Notes under the pieces: generated by a model
What the model was told of the DNA's origin: nothing
What the model saw: the letters and a program-made list of their open reading frames with translations, nothing else
Database searches by the model: none
Part shown: positions 39,644 through 58,315 of the stretch, piece after piece
How positions within the stretch are numbered: position 1 is the stretch's first letter
Layout of the letters: each line of letters starts with the position of its first letter
NCBI GenBank assembly: GCA_965204605.1
Contig: OZ241999.1
Location: 2,010,473-2,074,472, forward strand
Origin: Dehalococcoidia bacterium
GTDB lineage: Bacteria; Chloroflexota; Dehalococcoidia; Lucifugimonadales; JADFKI01
Direction: 5' to 3'
DNA length: 64,000 nucleotides
Position numbers and translations under genes: made by a program

Positions 39644-42600
39644 ATGCCTACCGCCGCCGAAACCGCCCAAACCCTGTTCGCAAATCGCCGCAACCTAGTC
39701 GCGCTTGGCGACTACAGCGAACAAGACACCGTCAGAAATCTCATAGATCCCGCGCTGGATTTTCTGGGATTCCCAGGCGACCGCCAGCGGCGCGAATTCC
39801 AAGCGGGGGACAATCGCCCGGATATTGTGCTGTACGACGTCCCCGCCGCGCTTGCGGGACGGCGACACGCCGTCGCCATCCTGGAAGCAAAGCCGCTCAA
39901 CGCCGACCTGGACGGCAGAGGCAGCGCCCATTCGCGCAGACCCAAGAGCCAGCTGATGCGCTACATTATCGCTCATCCCGCAAGCGGCCCAGGCGCCTAC
40001 GGCATTCTCACCGACGGCAATGTATGGCACACAATCCGTCGCAGCGAATACGACGACAACCAAGCCAATTTTGTACAAGAATGGCGCTTGCTCGACGGCG
40101 ATCAGCGCCAGTGCGCCGAACATCTCGCCGAAATCAAGCGCATGCTCGCCGAGGCGGCGCCCGCCCATGCCGCCCCCGCCAGCGCAAGGCGGCGCGATCC
40201 AACCCAAAAGGCGCGCGAAATCTGCCAAGCGATTGCCGAAAACGCATCCCCCACCGTGATACTGAATATGCTCACTGACAAAACGGGGGCGCGCCAAACC
40301 CAAATCCAAACTGAAATCCGAGACGGAGAGATACGAATTTCCAGTACGGCGCAAACGGAAATCAACCGATGGCGTCAGTACGCATTCGCCCAAACCGCCC
40401 AGATTCGCGCCGAGCAAGCCGACGCCTCCCACGAAGCGCTCTGCGTAGCGGTGATTAGCGCCGAGCCGCCCATGATGGAAAACGACATGTCCATTCACCG
40501 CGAAGACGTCGCGCTCGCCGCCGAAACTTTCGCCAAAGTCGTGCCGCTCAAAATGTCAGTGGCGCTTATTGTCCAACCGGACGAAACCGGCAAATCCGCC
40601 GCCGCCCGCATCGCAGTCCACTACCAAGCGCATACCGGCATGACCACCGAGTTCAACCCGCATATGCCCGCGCCCAAAACCCTGCGAACCATACAGCGCA
40701 TCTACGACCAACTCAACAAGACCGCCGCCGTCAGAGCCGATACGCTGACGGACGCCGTCGCCGCCAAGACCGTCCGCAAAGAGTTCTTTGAGAAGCTCGC
40801 CAACGGCTGGACGCTGCGCCAACAGCGCAAGGCAGCCGGCAGCGCCAACCAGCGCCACGCCTACCGCGAAGCCGTATTGCGCCATCTCATTCGCGTCATT
40901 TTCGTGTGGATTCTCAACGAAGACGGCAAACTGCCGCCCGAAGCCTTCGACGAAGCTTTCGCAAAGCGCGAAGCGCCCGGCGATTACCACAACGCCATTC
41001 TCACATTCCTGTTCCACGAAAGGCTCAACCAGCCGCCCGCGGACCGCATAACGCATCCCAACCCGCGCATCCAAGAGGCGCTCGCGGATACGCGCTTCCT
41101 CAACGGCTCCCTGTTCGCGCGCCACCAACACGACGACATGCTGCATCTCACGGACGCCGACTATTTCGGCGCCGATCCGAATGCGCCCGGCTTGTTCACC
41201 ATTCTCAACGAGTACGATTGGACTTCGTCCGAACACACCCCATACGCCAGCGAACAGACGATTGACCCCGAAGTGCTCAGCAATCTGTTCGAAAACCTTA
41301 TCGCCGCCACCCAAATCGGCGAAGAAACGCCCGACAGAATGCCCGCCGGCACCTATTACACTCCGGCGGACGTGGCGTTCGAGATGGTGAAAGACGCGCT
41401 TGCCGAAGCCACGCTGCCGTATGCGCCACGCCCGTCTTATACGCGCGCCGATCTGCGCCGGCTGTTCGGCAACGACGACGAACTTCCCCCCGATAGCGAC
41501 GCAGAGGAGCGCAATCGGCTTATCGACCGAATCCGCAGCCTTGCCATTTACGACCCCGCGGTGGGTTCGGGCGAGTTCCCCTTCATATGCCACCTGGCAA
41601 TCAAGCGCTCGCTGCGGAAGTTGGGGGTGTCCGACGATGACGCAACCCTAACCCGCGACATCATCGCGCGCCAACTTTTCGCGCAAGACATCAACCCGAT
41701 GGCGGTGCAGGTTACCCGCCTGCGCCTGTTCATCGCCATCATCGCCGCCGAAGACGCCGCCGCCGATCCGGCAGCATACGAACCGCTGCCCAACCTCGAG
41801 GCAAAGATAGTTTGCGCCGATACGCTCGCCACCGTCGCCAGCCCGAACTGGTCCATTTTCGGCGCAGAAACCCTGCAGTCCCGCGCAACCCAAGTCAACA
41901 AAGCGCTAGAGCATGTCGCCGAAATCCGCCAAGAGTGGCAGTCGGCGCACGACGAACAGACCAAAGCCGAACTGCGCCGCCAAGACGCCGACGCCCGCAA
42001 AGCGCTGAGCGCCGCCATCGGACGCGGATACGCCAGCGCCGAAACTACCGCATTCGCCAAGCATCCGCTGCTCGATCCCGACGCCCCGCCCGTCGAGACC
42101 GATCCCAGGCTGCTGTTCTACAATCCCGACCGGCAAGGCTTCGACATCGTCATCGGCAACCCGCCATACGAAAGCGTGAACAAGGACTTGAAGACGGACA
42201 CGGCGCGCAGAGACCGCCGCCAAACCCTAAAGCTGCGCCGCTTCCGCACAATAGCGGGCAGCGATCTGTACAACCTCATCGCAGAAGCGGCGCTAACCCT
42301 CGCCAATCCCAGCGGCGGCGTTGTTACCCTCATCGTCCCCCTATCCATCTGCTTCGGGCAAAACAAGAAAGACCTGCGCCGCCTCTTCGAAGAACGCTCC
42401 AACCGCATCAGTCTGCGCTGCCAAGATAACCGCCCAGACAAGGTGTTTCATAATAGCCCGGTGGAACACGGCGAAAGCCGCGTCAGAGCGACGATAATCA
42501 CGGCGACGATGGGCAAGCAAAATCCGATTATTGAAACTAGCGGCATAAACAGATGGCCCAAATCTGAACGGCACGAATACTTCACTTCACGCCCCAAATC

Positions 42601-43246
42601 GGTAACGCTTACCACACAGCAGAACACCGTCGGGGACGCGCGCATCGATGCCCAATGGGGACGCATACACACAACCGAAATCGCCGATCTGCTCGACGCA
42701 ATGCGCGCTGAAGAGACCAAAATCGTCAATATGAACGGACTCGGACAAGCCGATCTAGCCTTGGGCTTTCCCCCGTCGGCAATGTACTTCATCACAACAG
42801 CGCCCGCCGGCAGTCTCAAGCGCAGAGAGAAACTCTTGCCTATCTCCGGCCAAGAAAACCTAGAGTTAGCCGTAGCCGCCGCCAACACCCACGCCGCCTA
42901 CGCCTGGTGGATGGCATACGGCGACGCATTCGACATCAACCGCCACGAAATCGCCACAATCGCCGTCCCGCGCGCTTGGCTTGACGATGCCGCCACCAAC
43001 CGCCGCGTCCGCCGCTTGGCGCGCGAGCTCATCGCCGCCATCAACCCGCAAAACATCCGCCCACTCACAACCGGCACGCTCAGCAGCGTCCAAGACAGCC
43101 TAAACTTCCACGAATGCGCCCCCGCCGCCATCGCCGAGCTAGACGCGCTATACCTAGACGCCCTAAGCCAGCCCCGCTCCACGCTAACGCAGCTCCACGC
43201 CCTCCGCAGCAACGTCACCTGGCGCTTGGGGGCGGCCGTCCCCTAA
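39644..43246 (+). CDS. Eco57I-like type IIG restriction-modification enzyme (PD-ExK nuclease + gamma-class N6-adenine methyltransferase + TRD)
   Basis: 1200 aa. N-terminal RPDIVLYD...AILEAKP (PD..ExK), YYTPADVAFEMV, motif I IYDPAVGSGEFPF, motif IV IVIGNPPYES, and a C-terminal region of about 400 aa. Confidence 0.85.
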   Translation: MPTAAETAQTLFANRRNLVALGDYSEQDTVRNLIDPALDFLGFPGDRQRREFQAGDNRPDIVLYDVPAALAGRRHAVAILEAKPLNADLDGRGSAHSRRPKSQLMRYIIAHPASGPGAYGILTDGNVWHTIRRSEYDDNQANFVQEWRLLDGDQRQCAEHLAEIKRMLAEAAPAHAAPASARRRDPTQKAREICQAIAENASPTVILNMLTDKTGARQTQIQTEIRDGEIRISSTAQTEINRWRQYAFAQTAQIRAEQADASHEALCVAVISAEPPMMENDMSIHREDVALAAETFAKVVPLKMSVALIVQPDETGKSAAARIAVHYQAHTGMTTEFNPHMPAPKTLRTIQRIYDQLNKTAAVRADTLTDAVAAKTVRKEFFEKLANGWTLRQQRKAAGSANQRHAYREAVLRHLIRVIFVWILNEDGKLPPEAFDEAFAKREAPGDYHNAILTFLFHERLNQPPADRITHPNPRIQEALADTRFLNGSLFARHQHDDMLHLTDADYFGADPNAPGLFTILNEYDWTSSEHTPYASEQTIDPEVLSNLFENLIAATQIGEETPDRMPAGTYYTPADVAFEMVKDALAEATLPYAPRPSYTRADLRRLFGNDDELPPDSDAEERNRLIDRIRSLAIYDPAVGSGEFPFICHLAIKRSLRKLGVSDDDATLTRDIIARQLFAQDINPMAVQVTRLRLFIAIIAAEDAAADPAAYEPLPNLEAKIVCADTLATVASPNWSIFGAETLQSRATQVNKALEHVAEIRQEWQSAHDEQTKAELRRQDADARKALSAAIGRGYASAETTAFAKHPLLDPDAPPVETDPRLLFYNPDRQGFDIVIGNPPYESVNKDLKTDTARRDRRQTLKLRRFRTIAGSDLYNLIAEAALTLANPSGGVVTLIVPLSICFGQNKKDLRRLFEERSNRISLRCQDNRPDKVFHNSPVEHGESRVRATIITATMGKQNPIIETSGINRWPKSERHEYFTSRPKSVTLTTQQNTVGDARIDAQWGRIHTTEIADLLDAMRAEETKIVNMNGLGQADLALGFPPSAMYFITTAPAGSLKRREKLLPISGQENLELAVAAANTHAAYAWWMAYGDAFDINRHEIATIAVPRAWLDDAATNRRVRRLARELIAAINPQNIRPLTTGTLSSVQDSLNFHECAPAAIAELDALYLDALSQPRSTLTQLHALRSNVTWRLGAAVP

Positions 43247-45172: not shown

Positions 45173-46513
45173 ATGGACAGCGTAACGCTCAAGAACTACC
45201 GATGCTTTCGCGAGGAGCAGACCGCGCGGCTTGCTCCGCTAACCCTGCTTGTGGGCGAAAACAGCACAGGGAAGACATCCTTCCTCGCGATACTGCGCGC
45301 GCTGTGGGATGGCGCATTTCACCCCGGAATACCTGACTTTCGAGAATATCCCTTTGACCTGGGCGCATTTGAGGACATAGTGCATAATCGTGGTTCTGTG
45401 GATAAGAAATCACCCCAAGCATTTGAGGCAGGATTTCTTCGTAACTTGCCACAACCTGATACTAATCTAGTGTCCTTCCGTGCTACTTTCAAAGAGATCG
45501 ACGGAGCGCCTGTCCCAGCGAACCGGAGGTTTGGAAACAAAGAATTTGGGGTGGAAGCGGGCATAGAAGAAGGTGAGCAAATGCTTACATTCATCACGCC
45601 CCAGAATCAATATCAATGGAACCTCTCAAGTAGTGGATTTGTCGGTAATAATCCGATTCCATTTCCACTTGCTCCCGACATGGTGCAGCTTCTACTTTTG
45701 CGAAAGATTCGTGACGGACAGTCAACTCATGAAAGTAGTGAATCCCTACCCACTGAAGCTGAATATGAATTAGGAAAAATAGACGCCTTAAATCAGGCGC
45801 TATTTTCTGAAGTCTTCTCAACAAGACGTCCGTATGCCGGCGCTCCATTCCGCTCTCACCCACGGCGGACTTATGACCCGATACGCACCTCGCGGGATAC
45901 CGAAGGCGAGGCCATCCCCACTTACTTGGCGAACCTGTACAGGGGCAATTCGGACGGATGGCAGAAACTAAAGAAGTCTCTTGAAGACTTTGGACGAAAG
46001 TCGGGGCTGTTTGACGATATTGCCATAATGTCATTCGGCAAGACATCGGGCGCGCCGTTTCAAATACAGGTTAGGAAGTGGGGCAAGCGCCGCAAAGGCG
46101 CCTATCGCAACCTGATAGATGTGGGTTACGGCGTCAGCCAAGCGCTACCGATTGTCACGGAATTGCTCCGCTCGGACGCGCCGCAAATGTTCTTGCTGCA
46201 GCAGCCCGAAGTGCATCTGCACCCAAGCGCGCAAGCCGCCTTGGGCACCTTATTCTGCGACGTCGCGTCACAGCGAAAGCAGCTCATCGTTGAAACGCAC
46301 AGCGACTACATCATCGACCGCGTGCGTATGGATGTGCGCGATAAGACTACCGCCCTCAAGCCCGATGATGTATCGATTCTGTACTTCGAGCGCGATGATT
46401 TGGATGTGAAAATCCACTCCATCCGCTTGGACGAAATGGGCAATGTGCTAGATGCGCCGCACTCTTACGGGAAGTTCTTCATGGAAGAAACACGGCGTTC
46501 AATAGGGTTGTAA
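45173..46513 (+). CDS. AAA/ABC-like ATPase (AAA_15/21 with a DUF3696-like C-terminus)
   Basis: Walker A LLVGENSTGKTSFL, Walker B/D-loop MFLLQQPEVHLHP, H-loop VETHSDY, and a C-terminal ..YGKFFMEE. AT-richer than its flanks. Confidence 0.8.
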   Translation: MDSVTLKNYRCFREEQTARLAPLTLLVGENSTGKTSFLAILRALWDGAFHPGIPDFREYPFDLGAFEDIVHNRGSVDKKSPQAFEAGFLRNLPQPDTNLVSFRATFKEIDGAPVPANRRFGNKEFGVEAGIEEGEQMLTFITPQNQYQWNLSSSGFVGNNPIPFPLAPDMVQLLLLRKIRDGQSTHESSESLPTEAEYELGKIDALNQALFSEVFSTRRPYAGAPFRSHPRRTYDPIRTSRDTEGEAIPTYLANLYRGNSDGWQKLKKSLEDFGRKSGLFDDIAIMSFGKTSGAPFQIQVRKWGKRRKGAYRNLIDVGYGVSQALPIVTELLRSDAPQMFLLQQPEVHLHPSAQAALGTLFCDVASQRKQLIVETHSDYIIDRVRMDVRDKTTALKPDDVSILYFERDDLDVKIHSIRLDEMGNVLDAPHSYGKFFMEETRRSIGL

Positions 46514-46516
46514 TGT

Positions 46517-47020
46517 ATGTGCGCCATAATGGACAACAATGTCAGACACGAAGTATTCGGCGATTCTGACACTCAGACTCCGGCAGGGAAATACTTTCTT
46601 GAGTGGTTGGAAGGTCAGAATAGAATTCATGGCATTTTAGTCATCGGCGGCGAACTCAAGCGGGAATTAGGCGAATATGACCGATTCCAAACTTGGGCTA
46701 AGACAGCCATTTTGTTTGGCCGAGTTAGAGAAATTAGCGATGGATCGGTGGACAACGAGACAAATGATTTGCGGGCGCAGAATATATGCAAATCCAACGA
46801 TGCGCATATACTTGCGTTGGCAAGAGTAAGCGATACACGGCTTCTATTTACTAACGATCAAGCCCTTCAAGACGATTTCGGAGATAGAAATATCATTAAC
46901 AATCCTCGGGGACAGATATACACTACGGCAGTCCGCCAGGACCTTCAGCAGGTTCACCGCGACCGCCTAGATCCGAGGACAATCAGGCGAATATGCAGAC
47001 ATTGTCGACAGAAGAGCTAG
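46517..47020 (+). CDS. PIN-like domain protein
   Basis: The acidic positions IMDNNV, SNDAHILALA and LLFTNDQAL are spaced as in PIN folds. Starts 3 nt after the ATPase stop. Confidence 0.55.
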   Translation: MCAIMDNNVRHEVFGDSDTQTPAGKYFLEWLEGQNRIHGILVIGGELKRELGEYDRFQTWAKTAILFGRVREISDGSVDNETNDLRAQNICKSNDAHILALARVSDTRLLFTNDQALQDDFGDRNIINNPRGQIYTTAVRQDLQQVHRDRLDPRTIRRICRHCRQKS

Positions 47021-47695: not shown

Positions 47696-47724
47696 TTGTC
47701 AACCCTGCAACTTCCCCGTAAAAT
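47696..47724 (+). promoter_or_regulatory. sigma70-like promoter ahead of the ASST-like gene array
   Basis: TTGTCA (47696-47701), a 17-nt spacer, then TAAAAT (47719-47724). Lies 100 nt upstream of the ATG at 47825. Confidence 0.45.
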
Positions 47725-47824: not shown

Positions 47825-49570
47825 ATGAGCGACTTCAATGCTATAGGCGCGACTGCCCGAATTTATCGAAAGTGGGGAACTCTGAAACTCGGCCTCACAG
47901 CCGCCGCCGCCGCAATCGCAGCCGCGCTTTTAGGCGGCGTCCAGCATTCTCAAGCCTACGCCGACAGCCCCACGCCTAGTCCGTCCGTCCACGCATCGCG
48001 CTCGACCGACGCCTCCTCCCAAGCCCTGCGCCGCTACACCCTGCAGCTGCTGCATATCCTGTCCGACGCCGACACCAACAAATGGGAGCGCTACCGGCAG
48101 GCGATGCCGCACTGCGCCGCCGCTCCAGCATACCTTGACGAAATCAATGCGAACAACGATGTCAGCCCGCTCGACGCGACCCTTATTGCGCTGACCGAGG
48201 ATCTATGCGCCGATTTGGATCAGCGCTTGGATGACGCTAGAACCGTCGGACTGCTCGTGAACGAATCCCAAGCTATGCGCGGTTATACTCTTATAGCCGC
48301 ACGCTTCAAAAGCCGTATTCATCTGATTGACCATAGCGGCAGAATAGTGCATGAATGGAGGAAACAACTCAGAGGCTGGGTTCCTCACGCGAAACTTTTG
48401 GATAACGGGAATCTGCTTATTGAGCAAAGAACCGGCATGGACAACAGAATAATAACGGAAATTGACCCGGATGGTAATATCGTGTGGCAATTCCCCTATT
48501 TCGAAAGACTCCACCACGATTTCATCAAAATGCCCAACGGCAATGTACTGATACTTGCGCGCGGCACTAAGACCAGCGAAGAAGCCATAGCCGCGGGCAT
48601 AGACCCGGACATCGTGCCCCCCGGGGGAGTAAACTACGATTATCTGATGGAAGTCCGCCCCACCGGAAGCGAAGGTGGCGAGATTGTGTGGGAATGGTCT
48701 GCCTGGGACTACCTAGCGCAGGACATCGACTCAAGCAAAAATAACTACCGCGTGATTGCTGAGCATCCCGAACTAATCGACGCTAATTTTACGTCAGGAA
48801 AATGGGGAGACGGCTATCCTATATACGCAATGGAACTGACGTACATCAACGGAATAGACTATAACCCTGAGCTAGACCATATAGCGCTCTCCGCGCGTTA
48901 TTACAGCGAATTGTGGATAATAGACCACAGCGCAACCACGGAAGAAGCGCCCACCCGCACAGGCGGCAACGCAGGCAAAGGCGGCGCGCTGCTGTACAGA
49001 TGGGGCAATCCGCGCGCCTACAGACACGGGACAACTGACGACCAACGTCTGTTCCGCCAGCACCACACTCAGTGGATAGCCCCCGGACTCCCGGGCGAGG
49101 GCAACATCCTTGTGTTCAACAACGGATTTGAGTGGGGGGCGGATTCGCCCGGGCACTCCTCCATAGAAGAAATCATTCCTCCGCTGGACGGATACGGCTA
49201 TCGGCGCGAGCCAGGCGAAGCTTATCCTCCTGCGGAACCCGTTTGGACATACACCGCCGAACCCGCCTCGGATTTTTATTCCCGCATCATGTCCGGCGTT
49301 CAACGACTTCCCAACGGCAACACCCTGATTTGCGAAGCGGCGAAGGGAACTGTGTTCCAAGTAACCCCGGATGGGAAAACGGTTTGGAAGTATGTGTATC
49401 CTATAACGAATCAGGACATCCCATTGAAGCAGGGCGATCAACCGACAATACGGCTAGGTAATGACATATTCAACAACGCCGTATATCGCGCCTACTGGTA
49501 CGCGCCCGACCATCCCGGATTGCAGAAATATGACCTGACGCCCGGCGACGCCATCGAACTTTACGAATAG
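47825..49570 (+). CDS. exported arylsulfotransferase (ASST)-like beta-propeller protein, paralogue 1
   Basis: Signal peptide ending SQAYA/DSPTP. HHDFIKMPNGNVL, YDYLMEVRP..GEIVWEW, NGIDYNPELD, SELWIIDHS, FRQHHTQWI, VQRLPNGNTLI, VFQVTPDGKTVWKY. Confidence 0.7.
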   Translation: MSDFNAIGATARIYRKWGTLKLGLTAAAAAIAAALLGGVQHSQAYADSPTPSPSVHASRSTDASSQALRRYTLQLLHILSDADTNKWERYRQAMPHCAAAPAYLDEINANNDVSPLDATLIALTEDLCADLDQRLDDARTVGLLVNESQAMRGYTLIAARFKSRIHLIDHSGRIVHEWRKQLRGWVPHAKLLDNGNLLIEQRTGMDNRIITEIDPDGNIVWQFPYFERLHHDFIKMPNGNVLILARGTKTSEEAIAAGIDPDIVPPGGVNYDYLMEVRPTGSEGGEIVWEWSAWDYLAQDIDSSKNNYRVIAEHPELIDANFTSGKWGDGYPIYAMELTYINGIDYNPELDHIALSARYYSELWIIDHSATTEEAPTRTGGNAGKGGALLYRWGNPRAYRHGTTDDQRLFRQHHTQWIAPGLPGEGNILVFNNGFEWGADSPGHSSIEEIIPPLDGYGYRREPGEAYPPAEPVWTYTAEPASDFYSRIMSGVQRLPNGNTLICEAAKGTVFQVTPDGKTVWKYVYPITNQDIPLKQGDQPTIRLGNDIFNNAVYRAYWYAPDHPGLQKYDLTPGDAIELYE

Positions 49571-49628
49571 GCGGCGGCAAGGTCCGCCTTGCGCCGCCGG
49601 AATAGCCATATATGAGACACCAACCCGA

Positions 49629-51371
49629 ATGAACAACTTTAACGCCATAGCCCCGGTTGCCCTAATTTGTCGGGGGGGGGGGGGGCGAAAACCTCTCATT
49701 GCCGCAATCGCCGCAATCGCAATCGCCGCAGCGCTTTTAGGCGGCGTCCGGCATTCGCAAGTCCATGCCGACAGCCCCACGCCCACGCGCGCGCCCGCAT
49801 ACCAATCTCCCGCCGCCTCCTCCCAAGCGCTGCGCCGCCACACCCTGCAGCTGCTGCATATCCTATCCAACCCCGACGCCAACCAATGGGAACGCTACCG
49901 CCAGGCAATTGCGCATTGCGCCTCCGCGCCAACATACCTTGCCGAAACCGGCGCAGACAGCGATGTCAGCCCGCTCGACGCGACCCTCATTGCGCTGACC
50001 GAGGATCTGTGCGCCGACCTGGATCAGCGCTTGGAAGACGCTAGAACCGTCGGACTGCTCGTGAACGAATCCCAAGCTATGCGCGGCTATACTTTGATAG
50101 CCGGACAGACGAATAACTATGTTCACCTGATTGATCGCCTTGGCAGAACCGTCCATTCATGGCAGTTGGGAAGGCGAATTTCCCACGCAAAGCTTATGGA
50201 CAACGGGAATCTGCTTGTTCAACTAGACGGAGACGAACTCAGCATATCGGAACTCGATCCGGATAGCAGAATCGTGTGGAAGTACATCCACGCCGGCGAC
50301 TTCCATCACGACTTTCTCAAGATGCCCAACGGCAATGTGTTGATGCTGGCGCACGGCGTTAAGACCAGGGAAGAAGCCATAGCGATGGGCGCAAACCCGA
50401 ACATCGTGCCCTCCGAAGGCATGCAATACGACTATCTGATAGAAGTGCGCCCCACCGGAAACGAAGGCGGCGAAATCGTGTGGGAATGGTCAACGCTGGA
50501 CTACCTAGTCCAGGACTTCGACCCAACCAAGCCAAACTACGGCGCTCCCTCCGAACATCCCGAACTAATCGACGCTAATTTCTCGGCAGGAAGATACTGG
50601 GCTAACAATAACATCTTGGCATGGACGTACATCAACGGGATAGACTATAACCCTGAACTAGACCAGATAGCGCTCTCCGCACGTCATTTCAGCGAACTGT
50701 GGATAATAGACCACAGCGCAACCAGAGAAGAAGCGCCCACCCGCACAGGCGGCAACGCAGGCAAAGGCGGCGCGCTGCTGTACAGATGGGGCAACCCGCG
50801 CGCCTATCGACACGGAACGGTCGACGATCAACGGCTGTTTCGACAGCACCACACTCACTGGATAGCGCCCGGACTGCCCGGCGCAGGCAACATCCTTATG
50901 TTCAACAACGGATATGAGATAGGACTAGGCAAGGATCCACCCTTCTATTCGTCAATAGAAGAGATAGTTCCCCCGGTGGACGGATACGGCTATCGGCGCG
51001 ATCCCGGAGACCCCTACCCTCCCGCCGAGCCTGTCTGGAGATACGCCTCCGAACCGCCCACGGACTTTTACTCCCGCTTGTTGTCGAGCGCGCAACGGCT
51101 TCCTAACGGCAACACCCTGATTTGCGAGGGAATGCAGGGCAATGTGTTCCAAATAACCCCGGACGGAAGAACGGTCTGGAGATATGTGTACCCTATGGAT
51201 GGCGATACGCCATTGAAGCAGGGCGAGGAAGCTTCGATATACACTCAGCTGAGACGTGGAGATGCCACGTTCAACAACGCCGTATATCGCGCCTACTGGT
51301 ACGCGCCCGACCATCCCGGATTGCAGAAATATGACCTGACGCCCGGCGACGCCATCGAACTTTACGAATAG
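49629..51371 (+). CDS. ASST-like beta-propeller protein, paralogue 2 (G14 tract in codons 15-19)
   Basis: Same blocks as paralogue 1. The reading frame is intact only with the observed 14 G. Confidence 0.7.
   Translation: MNNFNAIAPVALICRGGGGRKPLIAAIAAIAIAAALLGGVRHSQVHADSPTPTRAPAYQSPAASSQALRRHTLQLLHILSNPDANQWERYRQAIAHCASAPTYLAETGADSDVSPLDATLIALTEDLCADLDQRLEDARTVGLLVNESQAMRGYTLIAGQTNNYVHLIDRLGRTVHSWQLGRRISHAKLMDNGNLLVQLDGDELSISELDPDSRIVWKYIHAGDFHHDFLKMPNGNVLMLAHGVKTREEAIAMGANPNIVPSEGMQYDYLIEVRPTGNEGGEIVWEWSTLDYLVQDFDPTKPNYGAPSEHPELIDANFSAGRYWANNNILAWTYINGIDYNPELDQIALSARHFSELWIIDHSATREEAPTRTGGNAGKGGALLYRWGNPRAYRHGTVDDQRLFRQHHTHWIAPGLPGAGNILMFNNGYEIGLGKDPPFYSSIEEIVPPVDGYGYRRDPGDPYPPAEPVWRYASEPPTDFYSRLLSSAQRLPNGNTLICEGMQGNVFQITPDGRTVWRYVYPMDGDTPLKQGEEASIYTQLRRGDATFNNAVYRAYWYAPDHPGLQKYDLTPGDAIELYE
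49672..49685 (+). repeat. homopolymeric G14 tract inside the 5' coding region of paralogue 2
   Basis: Counted directly: c + 9 g at 49671-49680 plus 5 g at 49681-49685. Translated as RGGGG. Confidence 0.9.
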
Positions 51372-51429
51372 GCGGCGGCAAGGTCCGCCTTGCGCCGCCG
51401 GAATAGCCACATATGAGACACCAACCCAA

Positions 51430-53136
51430 ATGAACAACTTTAACGCCATAGCCCCGGTTGCCCTAATCTGTCGTGTAGGGGGGCGAAAACCGCTCATTGC
51501 CGCAGTCGCCGCAATCGCCATCGCAGCCGCGCTTTTAGGCGGCGTCCGGCATTCGCAAGTCTATGCCGACAGCCCCACGCCCACGCCCGCCCGCGCCTCG
51601 CAACCATCCGACGCCGACGCCCATACCCTGCGGCGCTACACCCTGCAGCTGTTGCATATCCTATCCGACGCCGACTCCAACCGGTGGGAGCGCTACCGCC
51701 AGGCAATTGCGCATTGCGCCTCCCCCCCGGCATATCTTGGTGAAATCGGCGCAGACAGCGACGTCAGCCCGCTCGACCACGCCGTTGCTGCGATGACCGA
51801 GGATCTGTGCGCCGACCTGGATCAGCGCTTGGAAGACGCTAGAACCGTCGGACTGCTCATGAACGAACCCGAAGCTATGCGCGGCTATACTTTGATAACC
51901 GGATTTAGCGATAACTACGTTTACCTGGTTGACCACCTTGGCAGAATCGCCCATTCATGGCAGTTGGGAAGGCGAATTGCCCACGCAAAGCTTATGGATA
52001 ACGGGAATCTGCTTGTTCAACTAGGCAGAGGCGAGGAACTCAGCATACTCGATCCGGATAGCGGCATCGTGTGGAAGTACACCCATACCGGCAACTTCCA
52101 TCACGACTTTCTTAAGATGCCCAACGGCAATTTGTTGATGATAGTGCGAGGCTTTAAGTCCAGAGAAGAGGCCATACAGACAGGCGTAAATCCGGACGTC
52201 GTCCCATTAGAAGGAATGGAATACGACTACCTGATAGAAGTGCGCCCCACGGGAAGCGATGACGGCGAAATTGTGTGGGAATGGTCTGCGTGGGACTACA
52301 TAGTGCAGGACTTCGACGCATCCAAAGAGAACTACGGAGATCCATCCGATCATCCCGAACTAATTGACGTTAATTTTTTGGTGAAATCGAGTCGAGGCCG
52401 CGGCCGCAATACTTTGAATTGGCTCCATACCAATGCAATAGACTACAATCCTTCGCTAAACCAGATAATCCTTTCACCGCGGAATAACGACGAATTGTGG
52501 ATAATAGACCGTAGCGTCTCCACAGAAATTGCCCCCACGCGCAAAGGCGGAAACGCAGGCAAAGGCGGCGCGCTGCTGTACAGATGGGGCAATCCGCGCG
52601 CCTACAGGCACGGGACAACTGACGACCAACGTCTGTTCCGCCAGCACCATACTCAGTGGATAGCCCCCGGACTCCCGGGCGAGGGCAACATCCTTGTGTT
52701 CAACAACAAAAATGAGTTCGCGGCAGATCAGCGTAAGAACTACTCCTCCATAGAAGAGATCGTTCCCCCAACGGATGGATCCGAGTATAAGCGCGAACCG
52801 GACGCAGCCTATCCCCCTGTGGAGCCTGTCTGGACATACACCGCCGAACCTCCCTCGGATTTTTATTCCAGCGTCATGGGATGCGTGCAGCGGCTTCCCA
52901 ACGGGAACACCCTGATTTGCGATTCAACTTCAGGCGCCGTGTTTCAAGTAACTCCCGATGGAACGACCGTCTGGAAGTACGTTTATCCCATACGCGGCGA
53001 TATTCCATTGAAACAAGGTGAGGAAGTTGACGCAGACAATAGCTTCGTATATCGCGCCTACTGGTATGCGCCCGACTATCCCGGCCTGCAGAAATACGAC
53101 CTGACGCCCGGCGATACTATTGAGCTTTACGAATAG
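51430..53136 (+). CDS. ASST-like beta-propeller protein, paralogue 3
   Basis: Same blocks. The 5' end and upstream spacer are nearly identical to paralogue 2. Confidence 0.7.
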   Translation: MNNFNAIAPVALICRVGGRKPLIAAVAAIAIAAALLGGVRHSQVYADSPTPTPARASQPSDADAHTLRRYTLQLLHILSDADSNRWERYRQAIAHCASPPAYLGEIGADSDVSPLDHAVAAMTEDLCADLDQRLEDARTVGLLMNEPEAMRGYTLITGFSDNYVYLVDHLGRIAHSWQLGRRIAHAKLMDNGNLLVQLGRGEELSILDPDSGIVWKYTHTGNFHHDFLKMPNGNLLMIVRGFKSREEAIQTGVNPDVVPLEGMEYDYLIEVRPTGSDDGEIVWEWSAWDYIVQDFDASKENYGDPSDHPELIDVNFLVKSSRGRGRNTLNWLHTNAIDYNPSLNQIILSPRNNDELWIIDRSVSTEIAPTRKGGNAGKGGALLYRWGNPRAYRHGTTDDQRLFRQHHTQWIAPGLPGEGNILVFNNKNEFAADQRKNYSSIEEIVPPTDGSEYKREPDAAYPPVEPVWTYTAEPPSDFYSSVMGCVQRLPNGNTLICDSTSGAVFQVTPDGTTVWKYVYPIRGDIPLKQGEEVDADNSFVYRAYWYAPDYPGLQKYDLTPGDTIELYE

Positions 53137-53215
53137 ACGGCGGCAATTGATTGGACGCAGCGAATAGCCGTTTGTTATAATACGGCGAATATAAGCAGTA
53201 GAAACAGTAGCCGAA

Positions 53216-54754
53216 ATGAGCAAATTCAGCGCCGTATCGCGCTTTACTCCGCCGCTTCAATTTGTCAGGGGTTGGAGGGTGAAAACCGCCCTCGCCGCCG
53301 CCGCCGCAATCGCCATCGCCGCAATCGCAATCGCAGCCGCGCTTCTCCCGCTGAACGATGCGCCGTGCGACGGCTTGGACATAAATCCCCATAATTACTA
53401 TCCGCCCGCCGACGACGCTAGAACCGTCGGACTGCTCCTTAACGAACCGAAGTCTATCTGCGGATACGTCTTGATACCCGGACGTTTCAACAACTACGTT
53501 CACCTCATTGACCATCTTGGCAGAATCGTCAATGAATGGCAGTTCGAAAATAAAGTCTATCTCGCAGAGCTTTTGGATAACGGGAATCTGCTCGTTATAA
53601 TTCTAGAAGACGACGATAGCGACGGCCGCAACATAGCCGAAGTCGATCCGAACGGCAATATCGTGTGGCAATACACCCACATCGACGAACTCCATCGCGA
53701 TTTCATCAAGATGCCCAACGGCAATGTACTGATGTTGGCGCAGGGCGTTAAGACTAGGGAAGAAGCCATAGCGGCAGGCGCTAACCCGGATTTCATCCCA
53801 GAGCAAGGAATGCTATACGACTATCTGATAGAGATGCGTCCCGCCGGAAGCGAAGGCGGCGAGGTTGTGTGGGAATGGTCGTCGTGGGATTACATAACGC
53901 AGAACGTCGACGCAGCCAAATCAAATTACGGCGATCCTTCCGATCATCCCGAACTAATCGACGCCAACTTCTATACCGGAGCGACGCCGCCCGGCCCGCG
54001 TTCCCTACGGGACTGGCTGCATACTAACGCAATAGACTACAACCCTGAGCTAGACCTGATAGCGCTTTCCCCGCGCCAATTTAGCGAATTGTGGATTATA
54101 GATTACAGCCCCGCCACCGAAGAGGCGGCAGCGCGCAGTAGCCCCAACCCGCGCAAGGACGGCGCGCTGCTATACAGATATGGCAACCCGCGCGCCTACG
54201 GGCATGGGACGAACGCCGACCGCCAGCTGTTTCGGCAGCACCATATCCAATGGATAGCGCCCGAACTGCCCGGCGCAGGCGACATTCTTATCTTCAACAA
54301 CGGACACGCCTCGGATGAATACCCGCGTCAGTACTCATCCATAGATCAAATCGTTCTCCCAATGGACGGATACGAATATCGACACGAACCGAAAGCAGAG
54401 TACCCTCCACCCAAGCTTGTCTGGACTTACACTGCCGAAACCCCCGCCGATTTTTACTCCGGCATCATGGGCGGCGTGCAGCGGCTACCCAACGGCAACA
54501 CGCTCATTAGCGAATCAACGTCAGGAACCCTGTTTCAGATAACGCCCGATGGCAAGACGGTCTGGAAGTATGTGTACCCGATGGATGGCGATACTCCATT
54601 GAAACAGGGCGCGGAAGCCACGCTGCTAACGACTTTAAGCAACGACCGCCTGCTAAACAACGCCGTATATCGCGCCTACTGGTACGCGCCCGACCATCCC
54701 GGCCTGCAAAAGTACGACCTGACGCCCGGCGACGCCATTGAGCTTTACGAATAG
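53216..54754 (+). CDS. ASST-like beta-propeller protein, paralogue 4 (lacks the N-terminal helical domain)
   Basis: The signal anchor is followed directly by ..DDARTVGLLLNEP. Propeller blocks are conserved. Confidence 0.7.
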   Translation: MSKFSAVSRFTPPLQFVRGWRVKTALAAAAAIAIAAIAIAAALLPLNDAPCDGLDINPHNYYPPADDARTVGLLLNEPKSICGYVLIPGRFNNYVHLIDHLGRIVNEWQFENKVYLAELLDNGNLLVIILEDDDSDGRNIAEVDPNGNIVWQYTHIDELHRDFIKMPNGNVLMLAQGVKTREEAIAAGANPDFIPEQGMLYDYLIEMRPAGSEGGEVVWEWSSWDYITQNVDAAKSNYGDPSDHPELIDANFYTGATPPGPRSLRDWLHTNAIDYNPELDLIALSPRQFSELWIIDYSPATEEAAARSSPNPRKDGALLYRYGNPRAYGHGTNADRQLFRQHHIQWIAPELPGAGDILIFNNGHASDEYPRQYSSIDQIVLPMDGYEYRHEPKAEYPPPKLVWTYTAETPADFYSGIMGGVQRLPNGNTLISESTSGTLFQITPDGKTVWKYVYPMDGDTPLKQGAEATLLTTLSNDRLLNNAVYRAYWYAPDHPGLQKYDLTPGDAIELYE

Positions 54755-54856
54755 GCCGCGGCAAAATTGTCTTTGCGCCCGCAGAGCAGCCACCTAGGAG
54801 ACAGCGACCCAAATTGACTAACATCAACGCCACAGCCCTAGCCAGCCTAATTTGTC

Positions 54857-54874
54857 GGGGGGGGGGGGGGGGGG
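54857..54874 (+). repeat. homopolymeric G18 tract 1 nt upstream of the ATG of paralogue 5
   Basis: Counted directly as 4 + 10 + 4 g. Occupies the same TGTCG-(G)n position as in paralogue 2. Confidence 0.9.
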
Positions 54875-54875
54875 A

Positions 54876-56525
54876 ATGAAAACCGCCCTCACAGCCGCCG
54901 CCGCATTCGCAATCGCCGCCGCGCTTTTAGCCGCCGCCCCGCATTCGCAAGCCTATGCCGACAGCCCAACGTCGTCAAATGCCCGCGTCTCGCAACCGCC
55001 CGCCGACGCCTCCCAAGCCTTGCGCCGCTACACCCAGCAGTTGCTGCGCATCCTATCCAACCCCGACGCCAACCGGTGGGAACGCTACCGCCAGGCTATG
55101 CCGCATTGCGCCGACGCCCCTGCGCGCCTTGCCGAAATCAACGCAGCCAGCGACGTCAGCGCTCTCGACGCGACCCTTGCGGCGCTGACCGAGGATCTGT
55201 GCAGCGACCTGGATCAACGCCTGGACGAAGCTAGAACCGTCGGGTTGCTCATAAACGAACCCGAGGCTATGCGCGGATATACTTTGATACCTGGAAGATC
55301 CAGTAACTATGTTCGCCTGATTGACCATCTCGGCAGAGTCGCGCATTCATGGCAGTTAGAAAATGGGATTACCCACGCAAGGCTTTTGGATAACGGGCAT
55401 CTGCTTGTTCCTCTGGACAACGACAATGGACGGAGCATAGCGGAAGTCGATCAGGACAGCAATATCGTGTACCAATACTCACCCCCAGGATACTTCCATC
55501 ACGACTTCCTCAAGATGCCTAACGGCAATCTGCTGCTGCTGCTGCGAGGCTCCAAGACTAGAGAAGAAGCCGTAGCTGCGGGCGCAAACCCGGACGGCGT
55601 CCCTTCCGGGGGGATGCGGTACGACTATCTGATAGAAGTGCGCCCAGCAGGAACGGACGGCGGCGAGATTGTGTGGGAATGGTCGTCGTGGGACTACAGA
55701 GTGCAGGACTTCGACGCAAGCAAAGACAACTACGGAGTGATTGCCGAACATCCCGAACTAATCGACCTTAACTTTTTGGTTGAATCGCCGCCTATCAACC
55801 CCCGGGCCAACGCCTGGATTTGGCTGCATATCAACGGGATAGATTACAATCCTGATCTAGATCAGATAGCGCTTTCCCTCAGAAATCATAGCGAATTGTG
55901 GATTATAGACCACAACGCAGACGCTCAAGAGGCGCAAGCAAAGGCGGCTCCGCTGTACAGATGGGGCAACCCGCGCGCCTACGGACACGGAACAATTGCC
56001 GATCGACGGCTGTTCCTACAGCACCATACTCAGTGGATAGCCCCCGGACTGCCGGGCGCCGGCAATATCCTCGTGTTCAACAACGGATGGGCGCATGAGG
56101 AAGATCAGATTAGGAACTATTCGTCCATAGAAGAAATCGTTCCGCCGACGGACGGATACGGCTATCGGCGCGAGCCGGGAGTGCCATATCTTGAGACCGA
56201 TCCCGTATGGACATACACCGCCGAACCTCCCTCGGATTTTTATTCCCGCGTCATGGGATGCGTGCAACGGCTGCCCAACGGCAACACGCTGATTTGCGAT
56301 TCAACTTCGGGAACTGTATTGCAGGTAACTCCGGATGGAAAGACCGTCTGGAAGTACGTCTATCCCGTAGTTGCCGGTATGCCATTGAAGCAAGGCGAGG
56401 AAGTTGACGCGCGCCCTAACGCACGCAATAACGCCGTATATCGCGCCTACTGGTACGCGCCCGACCATCCCGGCCTGCAGAAATACGACCTGACGCCCGG
56501 CGATACCATTGAGCTTTACGAATAG
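54876..56525 (+). CDS. ASST-like beta-propeller protein, paralogue 5 (G18 tract immediately upstream of ATG)
   Basis: MKTALTAAAAFAIAAALLAAAPHSQAYA signal peptide. The ORF track's start at TTG 54852 reads through the G tract. The ancestral upstream start region (54814) is out of frame. Confidence 0.7.
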   Translation: MKTALTAAAAFAIAAALLAAAPHSQAYADSPTSSNARVSQPPADASQALRRYTQQLLRILSNPDANRWERYRQAMPHCADAPARLAEINAASDVSALDATLAALTEDLCSDLDQRLDEARTVGLLINEPEAMRGYTLIPGRSSNYVRLIDHLGRVAHSWQLENGITHARLLDNGHLLVPLDNDNGRSIAEVDQDSNIVYQYSPPGYFHHDFLKMPNGNLLLLLRGSKTREEAVAAGANPDGVPSGGMRYDYLIEVRPAGTDGGEIVWEWSSWDYRVQDFDASKDNYGVIAEHPELIDLNFLVESPPINPRANAWIWLHINGIDYNPDLDQIALSLRNHSELWIIDHNADAQEAQAKAAPLYRWGNPRAYGHGTIADRRLFLQHHTQWIAPGLPGAGNILVFNNGWAHEEDQIRNYSSIEEIVPPTDGYGYRREPGVPYLETDPVWTYTAEPPSDFYSRVMGCVQRLPNGNTLICDSTSGTVLQVTPDGKTVWKYVYPVVAGMPLKQGEEVDARPNARNNAVYRAYWYAPDHPGLQKYDLTPGDTIELYE

Positions 56526-56587
56526 ACGCGACGGCAAGGTCCGCCCTTGCGCCGCCATACCAACCATATTAGGAGACAGCAACCCAA

Positions 56588-58315
56588 ATGACTAGCATCA
56601 ACGCCACAGCCCTAGCCAGCCTAATTTGTCGAAGGGGAATGAAAACCGCCCTCACAGCCGCCGCCGTCGCAATCGCCGCGCTTGTAGGCGGCGGCCTGCA
56701 TTCGCAAGCCTATGCCGACAGTCCAACGTCGTCAAACGCCCGCGCCTCGCAACCGCCTGCCGACGCCTCCCAATCCCTGCGCCGCTACACCCAGCAGTTG
56801 CTGCGCATCCTATCCAACCCCGACGCCAACCGGTGGGAACGCTACCGCCAGGCTATGCCGCATTGCGCCGACGCTCCAACATATCTTGAAGCGATCGGCT
56901 CAGGCAGCGGCGTCGACACGCTCGACAACGCCCTTATCGCGCTGACCGAGGATCTGTGCGCCGACCTGGATCAACGCTTGGACGACGCTAGAACCGTCGG
57001 ACTGCTCATAAACGAACCCGAGGCTATGCGCGGATATACTTTGATACCTGGAACAGTCAACAACTATGTTCACCTGATTGACCATCTCGGCAGAGTTGCG
57101 CATTCATGGCAGTTAGAAAATGGGATTTCCCACGCAAGGCTCTTGGATAACGGGCATCTGCTTGTTCAACTAGCCGGCGACAATGGACGGAGCATAGCGG
57201 AAGTCGATCAGGACAGCAACATCGTGTATCAATACTCACCCCCAGGATTCTTCCACCACGACTTCCTCAATATGCCTAACGGCAATCTGATGATGTTGAT
57301 ACGCGGTTCCAAGACTAGAGAAGAAGCCGTAGCTGCGGGCGCAAACCCGGACGGCGTCCCTTCCGGGGGGATGCGGTACGACTATCTGATAGAAGTGCGC
57401 CCAACAGGAACGGACGGCGGCGAGATTGTGTGGGAATGGTCGTCGTGGGACTACAGAGTGCAGGACTTCGACGCAGGCAAAGACAACTACGGAGTGATTG
57501 CCGAACATCCCGAACTAATCGACCTTAACTTTTTGGTTGAATCGCCGCCTATCAACCGCCGGACCGATGCCTGGATGTGGCTGCACGCCAACGCAATAGA
57601 CTACAATTCCGCCCTCGATCAGATTATGCTGTCCCCCAGAAACCTTGACGAATTATGGATAATAGACCGCAGCGCAACCACCGAAGAGGCGCCCACGCGC
57701 AGCGGCGGCAATGCCGGCAAGGGCGGCGCCCTGCTGTACAGATGGGGCAACCCACGCGCCTACGGACACGGAACAATTGCCGATCGACGGCTGTTCCTGC
57801 CGCATCATCCCCAGTGGATAGCCCCCGGACTGCCGGGCGCCGGCAACATCCTCGTGTTCAACAACGGATGGGCCCATGAGGAAGATCAGATTAGGAACTA
57901 TTCGTCCATAGAAGAAATCGTTCCGCCGACGGACGGATACGGCTATCGGCGCGAGCCGGGAGCGGCGTATCCTCCTGCCGAGCCCGCTTGGACATACGTC
58001 GCCGAACCTCCCTCGGATTTTTATTCCCGCATCATGGGATGCGTGCAGCGGCTTCCCAATGGGAACACGCTAATTTGCGAGTCAACATCAGGCAATCTGT
58101 TTCAAGTAACCCCGGATGGAAAGACCGTCTGGAAGTATGTGTACCCGATGGATCGCGATACTCCATTGAAACAGGGCGAAGAAGCGTCGCCGCGGGAAAA
58201 CGTACAAGGCTTATTCAGCAACGCCGTATATCGCGCCTACTGGTACGCGCCCGACCATCCCGGCCTGCAGAAATACGACCTGACGCCCGGCGATACCATT
58301 GAGCTTTACGAATAG
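56588..58315 (+). CDS. ASST-like beta-propeller protein, paralogue 6
   Basis: Same blocks. The N-terminal extension MTSINATALASLICRRG is in frame with MKTAL. Confidence 0.7.
   Translation: MTSINATALASLICRRGMKTALTAAAVAIAALVGGGLHSQAYADSPTSSNARASQPPADASQSLRRYTQQLLRILSNPDANRWERYRQAMPHCADAPTYLEAIGSGSGVDTLDNALIALTEDLCADLDQRLDDARTVGLLINEPEAMRGYTLIPGTVNNYVHLIDHLGRVAHSWQLENGISHARLLDNGHLLVQLAGDNGRSIAEVDQDSNIVYQYSPPGFFHHDFLNMPNGNLMMLIRGSKTREEAVAAGANPDGVPSGGMRYDYLIEVRPTGTDGGEIVWEWSSWDYRVQDFDAGKDNYGVIAEHPELIDLNFLVESPPINRRTDAWMWLHANAIDYNSALDQIMLSPRNLDELWIIDRSATTEEAPTRSGGNAGKGGALLYRWGNPRAYGHGTIADRRLFLPHHPQWIAPGLPGAGNILVFNNGWAHEEDQIRNYSSIEEIVPPTDGYGYRREPGAAYPPAEPAWTYVAEPPSDFYSRIMGCVQRLPNGNTLICESTSGNLFQVTPDGKTVWKYVYPMDRDTPLKQGEEASPRENVQGLFSNAVYRAYWYAPDHPGLQKYDLTPGDTIELYE

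Follow-up and report, generated by a model that had tools for sequence, protein, structure and literature searches.

Poly-G and poly-C tracts that act as contingency loci are known from Campylobacter jejuni and Neisseria meningitidis, for example the poly-G runs within the open reading frames (ORFs) of hmbR and hpuAB (PMC3786947, PMC8355987, PMC5084427), and phase variation through homopolymeric tracts has been described in high-GC bacteria, namely the Mycobacterium tuberculosis complex and Bordetella pertussis (PMC10334774, PMC1891110, PMC2831843). Most documented cases of phase variation by slippage come from cultured pathogens and commensals. Here we analyse a run of 18 G (G18) in the window, a whole stretch of 64 kb of DNA from a Dehalococcoidia bacterium, in which the run lies directly upstream of the fifth of six tandem paralogous genes for arylsulfate sulfotransferase (ASST)-like proteins. 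We observe the tract and its reading frames, its recurrence across the gene family, allelic differences between strains and the occurrence of G18 together with G19 in one sample. On balance, we favour the reading in which G18 is a hypermutable slippage tract that would toggle copy 5 among three forms.

The locus resembles those of Campylobacter and Neisseria in that a run of at least 8 G is found close to the 5′ end of genes whose products are exported or located at the surface, with one-base changes there switching the frame, and in that many loci occur per genome, with alleles that vary between strains and within populations. Unlike those loci, it belongs to uncultured sponge-associated Dehalococcoidia (Chloroflexota) and concerns an ASST-like enzyme rather than an adhesin, receptor or glycosyltransferase; moreover, its tract precedes a signal peptide, is abutted by an in-frame start and holds 18 G against the usual 8-13. 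With the M. tuberculosis complex and Bordetella it shares coding G or C runs in GC-rich genomes that serve as frameshift switches or hotspots of microevolution and are found by comparison of genomes and reads. Those runs mostly measure 7-10 nt and lie dispersed among genes that are not related to each other; in the present case, one homologous site recurs across a whole paralogue family. Given a tract of at least 8 G, length polymorphism between strains and a frame consequence in silico, the copy-5 locus appears, on sequence grounds, to be mechanistically a classic poly-G contingency locus, and the evidence at the population level is suggestive. Full-text literature searches returned no report of phase variation in Chloroflexota or sponge symbionts, nor of ASSTs in sponge symbionts.

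The elements at the start of copy 5 are as follows.

54857-54874, forward strand: uninterrupted G18, proposed as the hypermutable tract; for the ATG at 54876 it is also a sliding Shine-Dalgarno-like sequence.
54814-54879, forward strand: leader frame of copy 5, with a TTG start and 21 codons (LTNINATALASLICRGGGGGE) followed by TGA.
54814-54816, forward strand: TTG start of the leader, in the sequence context CCCAAATTGACT.
54877-54879, forward strand: TGA stop of the leader, overlapping the ATG at 54876-54878 (ATGA), an arrangement typical of translational coupling.
54795-54802, forward strand: conserved element TAGGAGAC, a block of columns conserved in an alignment of 36 upstream regions.
54847-54856, forward strand: conserved island CTAATTTGTC, abutting the 5′ side of the tract, with TAA in one frame and TTG (54852-54854) in another.
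54876-56525, forward strand: main ORF of copy 5 from the internal ATG, 549 aa, an ORF call; the public annotation P0123 starts here.
54876-54959, forward strand: predicted signal peptide of copy 5, residues 1-28 (MKTALTAAAAFAIAAALLAAAPHSQAYA), of classical Sec type, judged by sequence alone.

On its 3′ side the tract is followed by AATGAAAACC, which carries the ATG at 54876. Copy 6 reads ATGACTAGC...CTAATTTGTC-GAAGGGG-AATGAAAACC as a single open frame and, because seven bases separate GTC and AATG there, the tract lengths that are in frame are those equal to 1 modulo 3 (16, 19). This arrangement is that of the original prediction, which had described G18 in place of the copy-6 GAAGGGG, an upstream ATG turned to TTG at 54814, an upstream frame that meets TGA inside the ATG at 54876, restoration of the frame by G16 or G19 and uninterrupted read-through in copy 6; direct reading of the window and the copy-6 spacing bear out all of it. 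The second TTG, at 54852 within AATTTGTC, is in frame with the main ORF at G18 and gives an ORF of 54852-56525. Peptide stretches predicted from the leader include MNNFNAIAPVALICR..., TNINATALASLICR... and NNFNAIAPVALICR. The homologous leader has an ATG start in frame in copies 1-4 and 6, and the TTG of copy 5 is kept in all five copy-5 orthologues; because TTG is a usable start and is kept in this way, translation of the copy-5 leader, as an upstream ORF of 21 codons, probably persists.

In the proposed switch, the tract would be a slippage-prone simple-sequence repeat set between the short leader frame and the signal peptide of the ASST-like protein, and the gain or loss of one G in replication would shift the gene among three configurations. 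With 16 or 19 G (state A), the TTG leader would be fused in frame, adding about 20 N-terminal residues before the signal peptide. With 18 G, as in the window (state B), the leader would be a separate 21-codon upstream ORF whose TGA overlaps the ATG, and the product would be the short pre-protein MKTAL..., made through reinitiation or through direct ribosome binding to the G run as a Shine-Dalgarno sequence. With 17 or 20 G (state C), ribosomes from the leader would cross the ATG in the third frame for more than 100 codons, depressing initiation at the ATG; the allele of assembly L095, given below, has this kind of frame. As an in-frame start abuts the tract, one out-of-frame state is probably still productive. 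We infer that slippage occurs often and can reverse, that ribosomes translate the leader and that protein output or the N-terminus depends on the state. Many paralogues vary at this site, so that a population of symbionts would hold a shifting mix of expressed ASST variants.

A broader form of this proposal, which we advance tentatively and hold to be possible if doubtful, is a family-wide three-state switch. In it the repeat would be both the 3′ end of the leader and the Shine-Dalgarno sequence of the internal start, would operate independently in dozens of ASST paralogues per genome and would give a combinatorial repertoire of secreted sulfotransferases, with the TAA and TTG of the CTAATTTGTC island making every tract length interpretable. 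If the switch is real, obligate or long-term sponge symbionts would generate stochastic, cell-to-cell diversity in a large family of secreted enzymes, which would bear on how their populations deal with the chemistry of the host (sulfated and phenolic metabolites), with host recognition or with phages. The tract is also a simple marker for following sub-populations in metagenomes.

Several lines of evidence bear on the proposed switch. First, the G-rich site recurs across the family. An alignment of the 5′ regions of the six copies is G-rich at the homologous column in all six:

copy 1: GAAAGTGGGG
copy 2: G14, 49672-49685, forward strand, in frame (…LICRGGGGRKPL…)
copy 3: GTGTAGGGGGG
copy 4: AGGGGTTGGAGGG
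copy 5: G18
copy 6: GAAGGGG

G18 and G14 are the only homopolymers of at least 8 nt in the 64 kb. A shuffled window is expected to hold 0.19 matches to G10; 14 are observed, all within these two runs. That two paralogues carry long G runs at one homologous site had been noticed from the letters of the DNA, and the alignment places both runs in a single column. Beyond the window, where labels of the form Lnnn denote recovered homologous loci or assemblies, runs of G8-G18 stand at the junction nine times among 34 alignable close paralogues drawn from eight loci, and in about 20 paralogues overall, from at least six related assemblies; runs of G8-G14 at the homologous junction occur in L002, L081-L084 and L096. 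A distant group, from two other Dehalococcoidia metagenome-assembled genomes (MAGs) with 45-54% protein identity, carries CATATTTGTTCT-G8/G9-CA(A/G)AA in about 11 paralogues. The variation is also visible in public annotation: in database protein N-termini the number of G residues after ...LICR varies, and about half of the database homologues are truncated or called from MKTAL or MLK directly 3′ of the tract, so that internal-start or truncated calls depend only on the tract length that the assembly captured.

Second, the leader is usually joined to the protein. It is continuous with the signal peptide in 25 of the 34 close paralogues (binomial p = 2e-6 against an expectation of 1/3, for genes that are not independent). 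It is continuous too in two copy-5 orthologues, those with G11 (L081) and TG10 (L096), and the G18 state of the window is therefore derived and uncoupled, in agreement with the original claim that an ancestral extension had been uncoupled in copy 5.

Third, several leaders that are not joined to the protein stop at or near the main start. Overlaps of stop and start codons (ATGA or GTGA) mediate translational coupling at the junctions of the Escherichia coli trp operon. Here the leader TGA similarly overlaps the ATG or GTG of the main ORF, and the overlap is fixed in tract-free paralogues (ATGCTGA type); unlike at the trp junctions, the overlap is conditional on tract length, and the coupling itself is putative. 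An NTGA overlap ends the leader in all 5 close paralogues that share the relative frame of copy 5: ATGA at 54876-54879 in the window, and GTGA or CTGA in L082_2001, L084_6441, L084_10142 and L084_15561. The sequence NTGAAAACC carries TGA in the +1 frame. In eight tract-free paralogues the leader is fixed as a separate ORF of 16-21 codons, with its stop at the main start or 4 nt before it. Such a separate leader (for example MSEFNAINLADRIIAKASEIC*), seen in tract-free L084_6441, L084_10142, L084_15561, L001_672, L083_5671, L095 position 766 and L096 position 837, ends at a TGA inside ATGCTGAAA or at a TAG 4 nt before ATGCTGAAA.

Start codons and upstream elements of the leaders show patterns of their own. 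TTG leaders go with long tracts: runs of G8 or longer accompany 5 of 7 TTG leaders against 4 of 27 ATG or GTG leaders (Fisher p = 0.007, from about two independent lineages; TTG leaders at 54814 of the window and in L081, L082, L083, L095, L096 and L097). In copies 2 and 3 (49610-49632 and 51411-51433), the upstream element ATATGAGACACCAACCCGAATGA forms a mini-ORF of six codons, MRHQPE*, with a TGA stop that overlaps the ATG of the leader. The same ATG serves as the gene start (MRQKQFNAITAAV...) in L082_7419 and L082_9238, where the entire tract region is deleted.

Fourth, tract length differs between strains. The copy-5 orthologues fall into four alleles that represent all three frame states:

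G18 followed by AATG: the window and, independently, L097, from another European Nucleotide Archive (ENA) sample
G19 followed by TGAAAACC (G19+TG): L095, whose leader stays open out of frame for 142 codons and passes over the GTG start
G11 (L081) and TG10 (L096): the internal (A)ATGAAAAC is missing, and the tract is in frame with the TTG leader

L095 and L096 derive from one sample. In copy 2, which lacks an internal start codon at its tract and so depends on the leader ATG at 49629, orthologues carry G14, G12CA or GTGTAGGGGGG (GTGTAG6), and the frame is kept in all of them.

Fifth, tract length appears to differ within a sample. This evidence comes from Logan unitigs rather than raw reads, of sequencing runs (labelled Xn). 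In run X2, whose platform is not stated, a unitig with exactly 18 G (depth 34.3) and one with exactly 19 G (depth 19.8) have identical flanks, with no G17 branch; because the left- and right-anchored unitigs both traverse exactly 18 G before branching, X2 holds no allele shorter than 18 G. Additional k-mers imply longer runs or a co-resident G19+TG allele. As a control in the same run, the copy-2 G14 is crossed by one unbranched 124-nt unitig (depth 72.3) with no variant, which puts platform error at G14 below about 3% and speaks against a high rate of homopolymer errors throughout the run. We treat the G18-G19 pair as suggestive, and no more than that, of heterogeneity within the population. 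Depth at the locus is only 2 in X1, and runs X5-X9 hold related paralogues, not copy 5. Together, the recurrent runs at the junction, the tract differences among orthologues and the pair of lengths in one run side with the original argument for hypermutability over chance, and we read them as consistent with it.

Other homopolymer tracts also came to light. Two other Dehalococcoidia MAGs carry an orthologous tract in an unrelated upstream gene; it reads G9 at L005 position 1575 and G10 at L010 position 1562, a one-G difference that makes it another candidate slippage site. Within the ASST ORFs of L002 (position 4091, C9) and L003 (position 2964, C8), a C run lies in …GNENT-PPP-VQM…, just before the conserved GKGGALLYRWGNP, and may give some paralogues a second slippage tract, inside the gene. 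A scan of JGI metagenomes for CTAATTTGTCG7 gave 10 unrelated loci and no ASST leaders; among JGI metagenome contigs, L085 (position 8585), L087 and L094 share an unrelated AT-rich element, ...TTAATTTTCCTAATTTGTC-G11/G12/G13-ACTTTATCTGTC, with a variable G tract; its match to the 10-mer is due to chance.

Several observations weigh against the proposed switch. The Shine-Dalgarno-like sequence before the leader, GGAG within TAGGAGAC, lies 12-13 nt from the leader start, beyond the usual spacing. The CTAATTTGTC island is kept as DNA although it is read as LIC, NLS or QFV, in three frames, in different subfamilies, and a codon-position test of the leader (n = 12) found no excess of variation at third positions; part of the conservation of the leader and island would therefore act at the DNA or RNA level. 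The counts of in-frame genes are inflated by common ancestry. In the distant group only about 40% of the tract-bearing genes are in frame, a share that fits phase variation and decay equally. Within X2, the G19 unitig has only 11-12 nt of common flank and, given this and the unstated platform, G19 could stem from another strain in the sample or, in part, from errors in the homopolymer. A further run of that sample, X3, breaks at the tract and shows artefacts such as poly-C chimeras.

The alternative to be taken most seriously holds that the tract does no more than bind ribosomes, or act as a 5′ element, for the gene starting at ATG 54876. It would be an expanded GGAGG whose length, if it changes at all, tunes initiation strength and does not switch frames, the upstream frame being irrelevant or untranslated. 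In 17 of the 25 paralogues with NTG-AAA(-ACC), the homologous site does carry a Shine-Dalgarno-like GGAG, GAGG or GGGG 3-10 nt ahead of the internal start, and in tract-free paralogues the site resembles a GGAGG ribosome-binding site at that distance from an internal ATG or GTG. Copy 6 has its GGGG just 1 nt from the ATG, and G18 in copy 5 stretches the G run over the optimal distance. These motifs agree with the Shine-Dalgarno role that the run had been assigned at the outset, and as a complete account of the tract they are joined by the public annotation, which begins at ATG 54876, by MKTAL..., a textbook signal peptide, and by the leader's want of a codon-position signature. Against a ribosome-binding role alone, copies 1-3 and several homologues (CGAAAACC, CTGAAACTC) have no internal start and must use the leader ATG, which makes the leader indispensable in those three copies; in L081 and L096, copy 5 itself has lost the internal ATG, and the TTG leader alone remains. 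The in-frame leader of 25 of 34 paralogues is likewise unaccounted for, as are subfamilies with a frame-shifted leader (FHNP..NLSGGG and ..QFVGGG), which are brought back in frame by compensating lengths of the G-rich region, and the leader residues F, A and L, which are retained through synonymous changes between the close and distant groups. We regard this alternative as unlikely.

Decidedly unlikely, in our judgement, is that the tract is a neutral by-product, in which a slippage-prone, G-rich Gly/Arg linker drifts in length and out-of-frame states such as G18 mark the point at which the leader, or a redundant paralogue, begins to decay into a pseudogene. In its favour, the family has many redundant members, six or more of them in tandem, and OZ251547.1 has at least 11 loci; leaders are broken or lack a start in L003_2009, L015, L021 and L084_13772, and the in-frame share of the distant group points the same way. 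Drift, however, sits poorly with the retention of an uninterrupted G9 by about 9 paralogues, from two genomes, although divergence has brought their mature proteins to about 50% identity, with the independent origin of long tracts from distinct interrupted sequences (GTGTAGGGGGG and GAAGGGG), with main ORFs that stay intact over 550 codons past out-of-frame tracts, and with the lack of any comparable homopolymer elsewhere in the 64 kb.

An explanation at the level of RNA or DNA structure seems very improbable: polymerase or ribosome slippage on G18 would express all frames, or a non-template G-quadruplex or R-loop would throttle transcription into copies 5 and 6. Eighteen G exceed known lengths for polymerase slippage and suffice for an intramolecular G-quadruplex, and copy 5 seemingly lacks a sigma-70-like promoter of its own and may be read through from copy 4. 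Such effects leave unexplained the allele differences between strains at the DNA level and the usual conservation of frame, and pairing of the tract with the CCGCCC downstream of it gives a local fold with no significant advantage over shuffles (z -1.4). That the run or its exact length is an artefact of sequencing or assembly has a practically negligible probability, since G18 is reproduced in the independent assembly L097, is the major exact unitig in X2 and has long counterparts at the same site in at least six independent assemblies, although long homopolymers are error-prone on every platform X3 does not get across it, showing poly-C chimeras, and X1 reaches a depth of just 2.

Two further candidates for the conserved leader region did not stand. 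Conserved RNA structure was rejected, as RNAalifold on 20 leaders predicted 0 pairs, the region had no Rfam match and folds were weaker than those of shuffles; such weak folding of the leader (z +2.0 to +2.7) is what an initiation region would show. A promoter within the leader, with -10 TAATTT, a start in the G run and reiterative transcription, was not supported: a consensus scan gave no site there, and the best hexamers matched at 7/12 by eye. The same sigma-70-like scan placed promoter candidates only before copy 1 (47696-47724) and copy 4 (53152-53181), a total not above chance. The distant group keeps ATTTGTTCT, including ATTTGT, before its G9.

The genes that carry these leaders form the following array.

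47825-58315, forward strand: tandem array of six paralogues, recognised from ORF calls, PF05935 profile matches and conserved synteny
47825-49570, forward strand: copy 1
49629-51371, forward strand: copy 2
51430-53136, forward strand: copy 3
53216-54754, forward strand: copy 4
54876-56525, forward strand: copy 5
56588-58315, forward strand: copy 6

The copies encode proteins of 512-581 aa, predicted to be secreted and arylsulfotransferase-like. In a Pfam profile search they match PF05935 (arylsulfotransferase) with E of 7e-18 to 2.5e-20; copy 5 scores 65 bits (E 7.4e-18) against a cut-off of 24.2, with similar values for the others. Each copy has a hydrophobic N-terminal segment ending ...HSQAYA|DSPT, which reads as a putative Sec signal peptide. 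An AlphaFold model from a shallow alignment, of low confidence (pLDDT 58), has a beta-propeller core, and its top Foldseek match in the Protein Data Bank (PDB) is the ASST-type sulfotransferase Cpz4 (9kf6; E 4e-9, TM 0.40/0.49, 14% identity on this low-confidence model); the modelled match agrees with the Pfam assignment and is weak taken alone. With its above-threshold Pfam match and modelled beta-propeller core, the protein resembles the arylsulfate sulfotransferases (PF05935) that are independent of 3′-phosphoadenosine 5′-phosphosulfate (PAPS), such as E. coli AssT and Streptomyces Cpz4 (PDB 9kf6), and its N-terminal export signal fits a periplasmic or extracytoplasmic enzyme as in these. 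Unlike AssT and Cpz4, it has an extra helical domain of about 100 residues after the signal peptide. Searches with the ASST-like protein gave no match in PDB sequences (phmmer) or in NCBIfam, and an exact-product look-up for copy 6 found nothing.

The array occurs in the same gene context in five other assemblies (L081, L084, L095, L096 and L097), and the family is large, with 2806 matches and many paralogues per contig. Its relatives in Genome Taxonomy Database (GTDB) genomes are all Dehalococcoidia MAGs, and the runs that contain the sequence are sponge metagenomes or host-labelled runs; no run was recognisable as RNA.

In copy 4 the helical domain of about 100 residues that the other copies have behind the signal peptide is absent, a short type kept in other strains; the gene is preceded by its own TATAAT promoter-like site, the candidate at 53152-53181. 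A GC-rich hairpin, GGCGGCGGCAAGG-TCCG-CCTTGCGCCGCC, with no T run, is found after each ASST gene (49572-49600, 51373-51401, 56530-56557) and may be a terminator or processing element. Upstream of the array, an ATPase of the AAA_15/AAA_21/DUF3696 type is followed by a 167-aa ORF (45173-47020), a pair that is syntenic in L081 and L084, and a 1200-aa fused restriction-modification enzyme of the MmeI/Eco57I-like type (39644-43246) lies just 5′ of the array. Together, this enzyme and the ATPase pair look like a small defence island.

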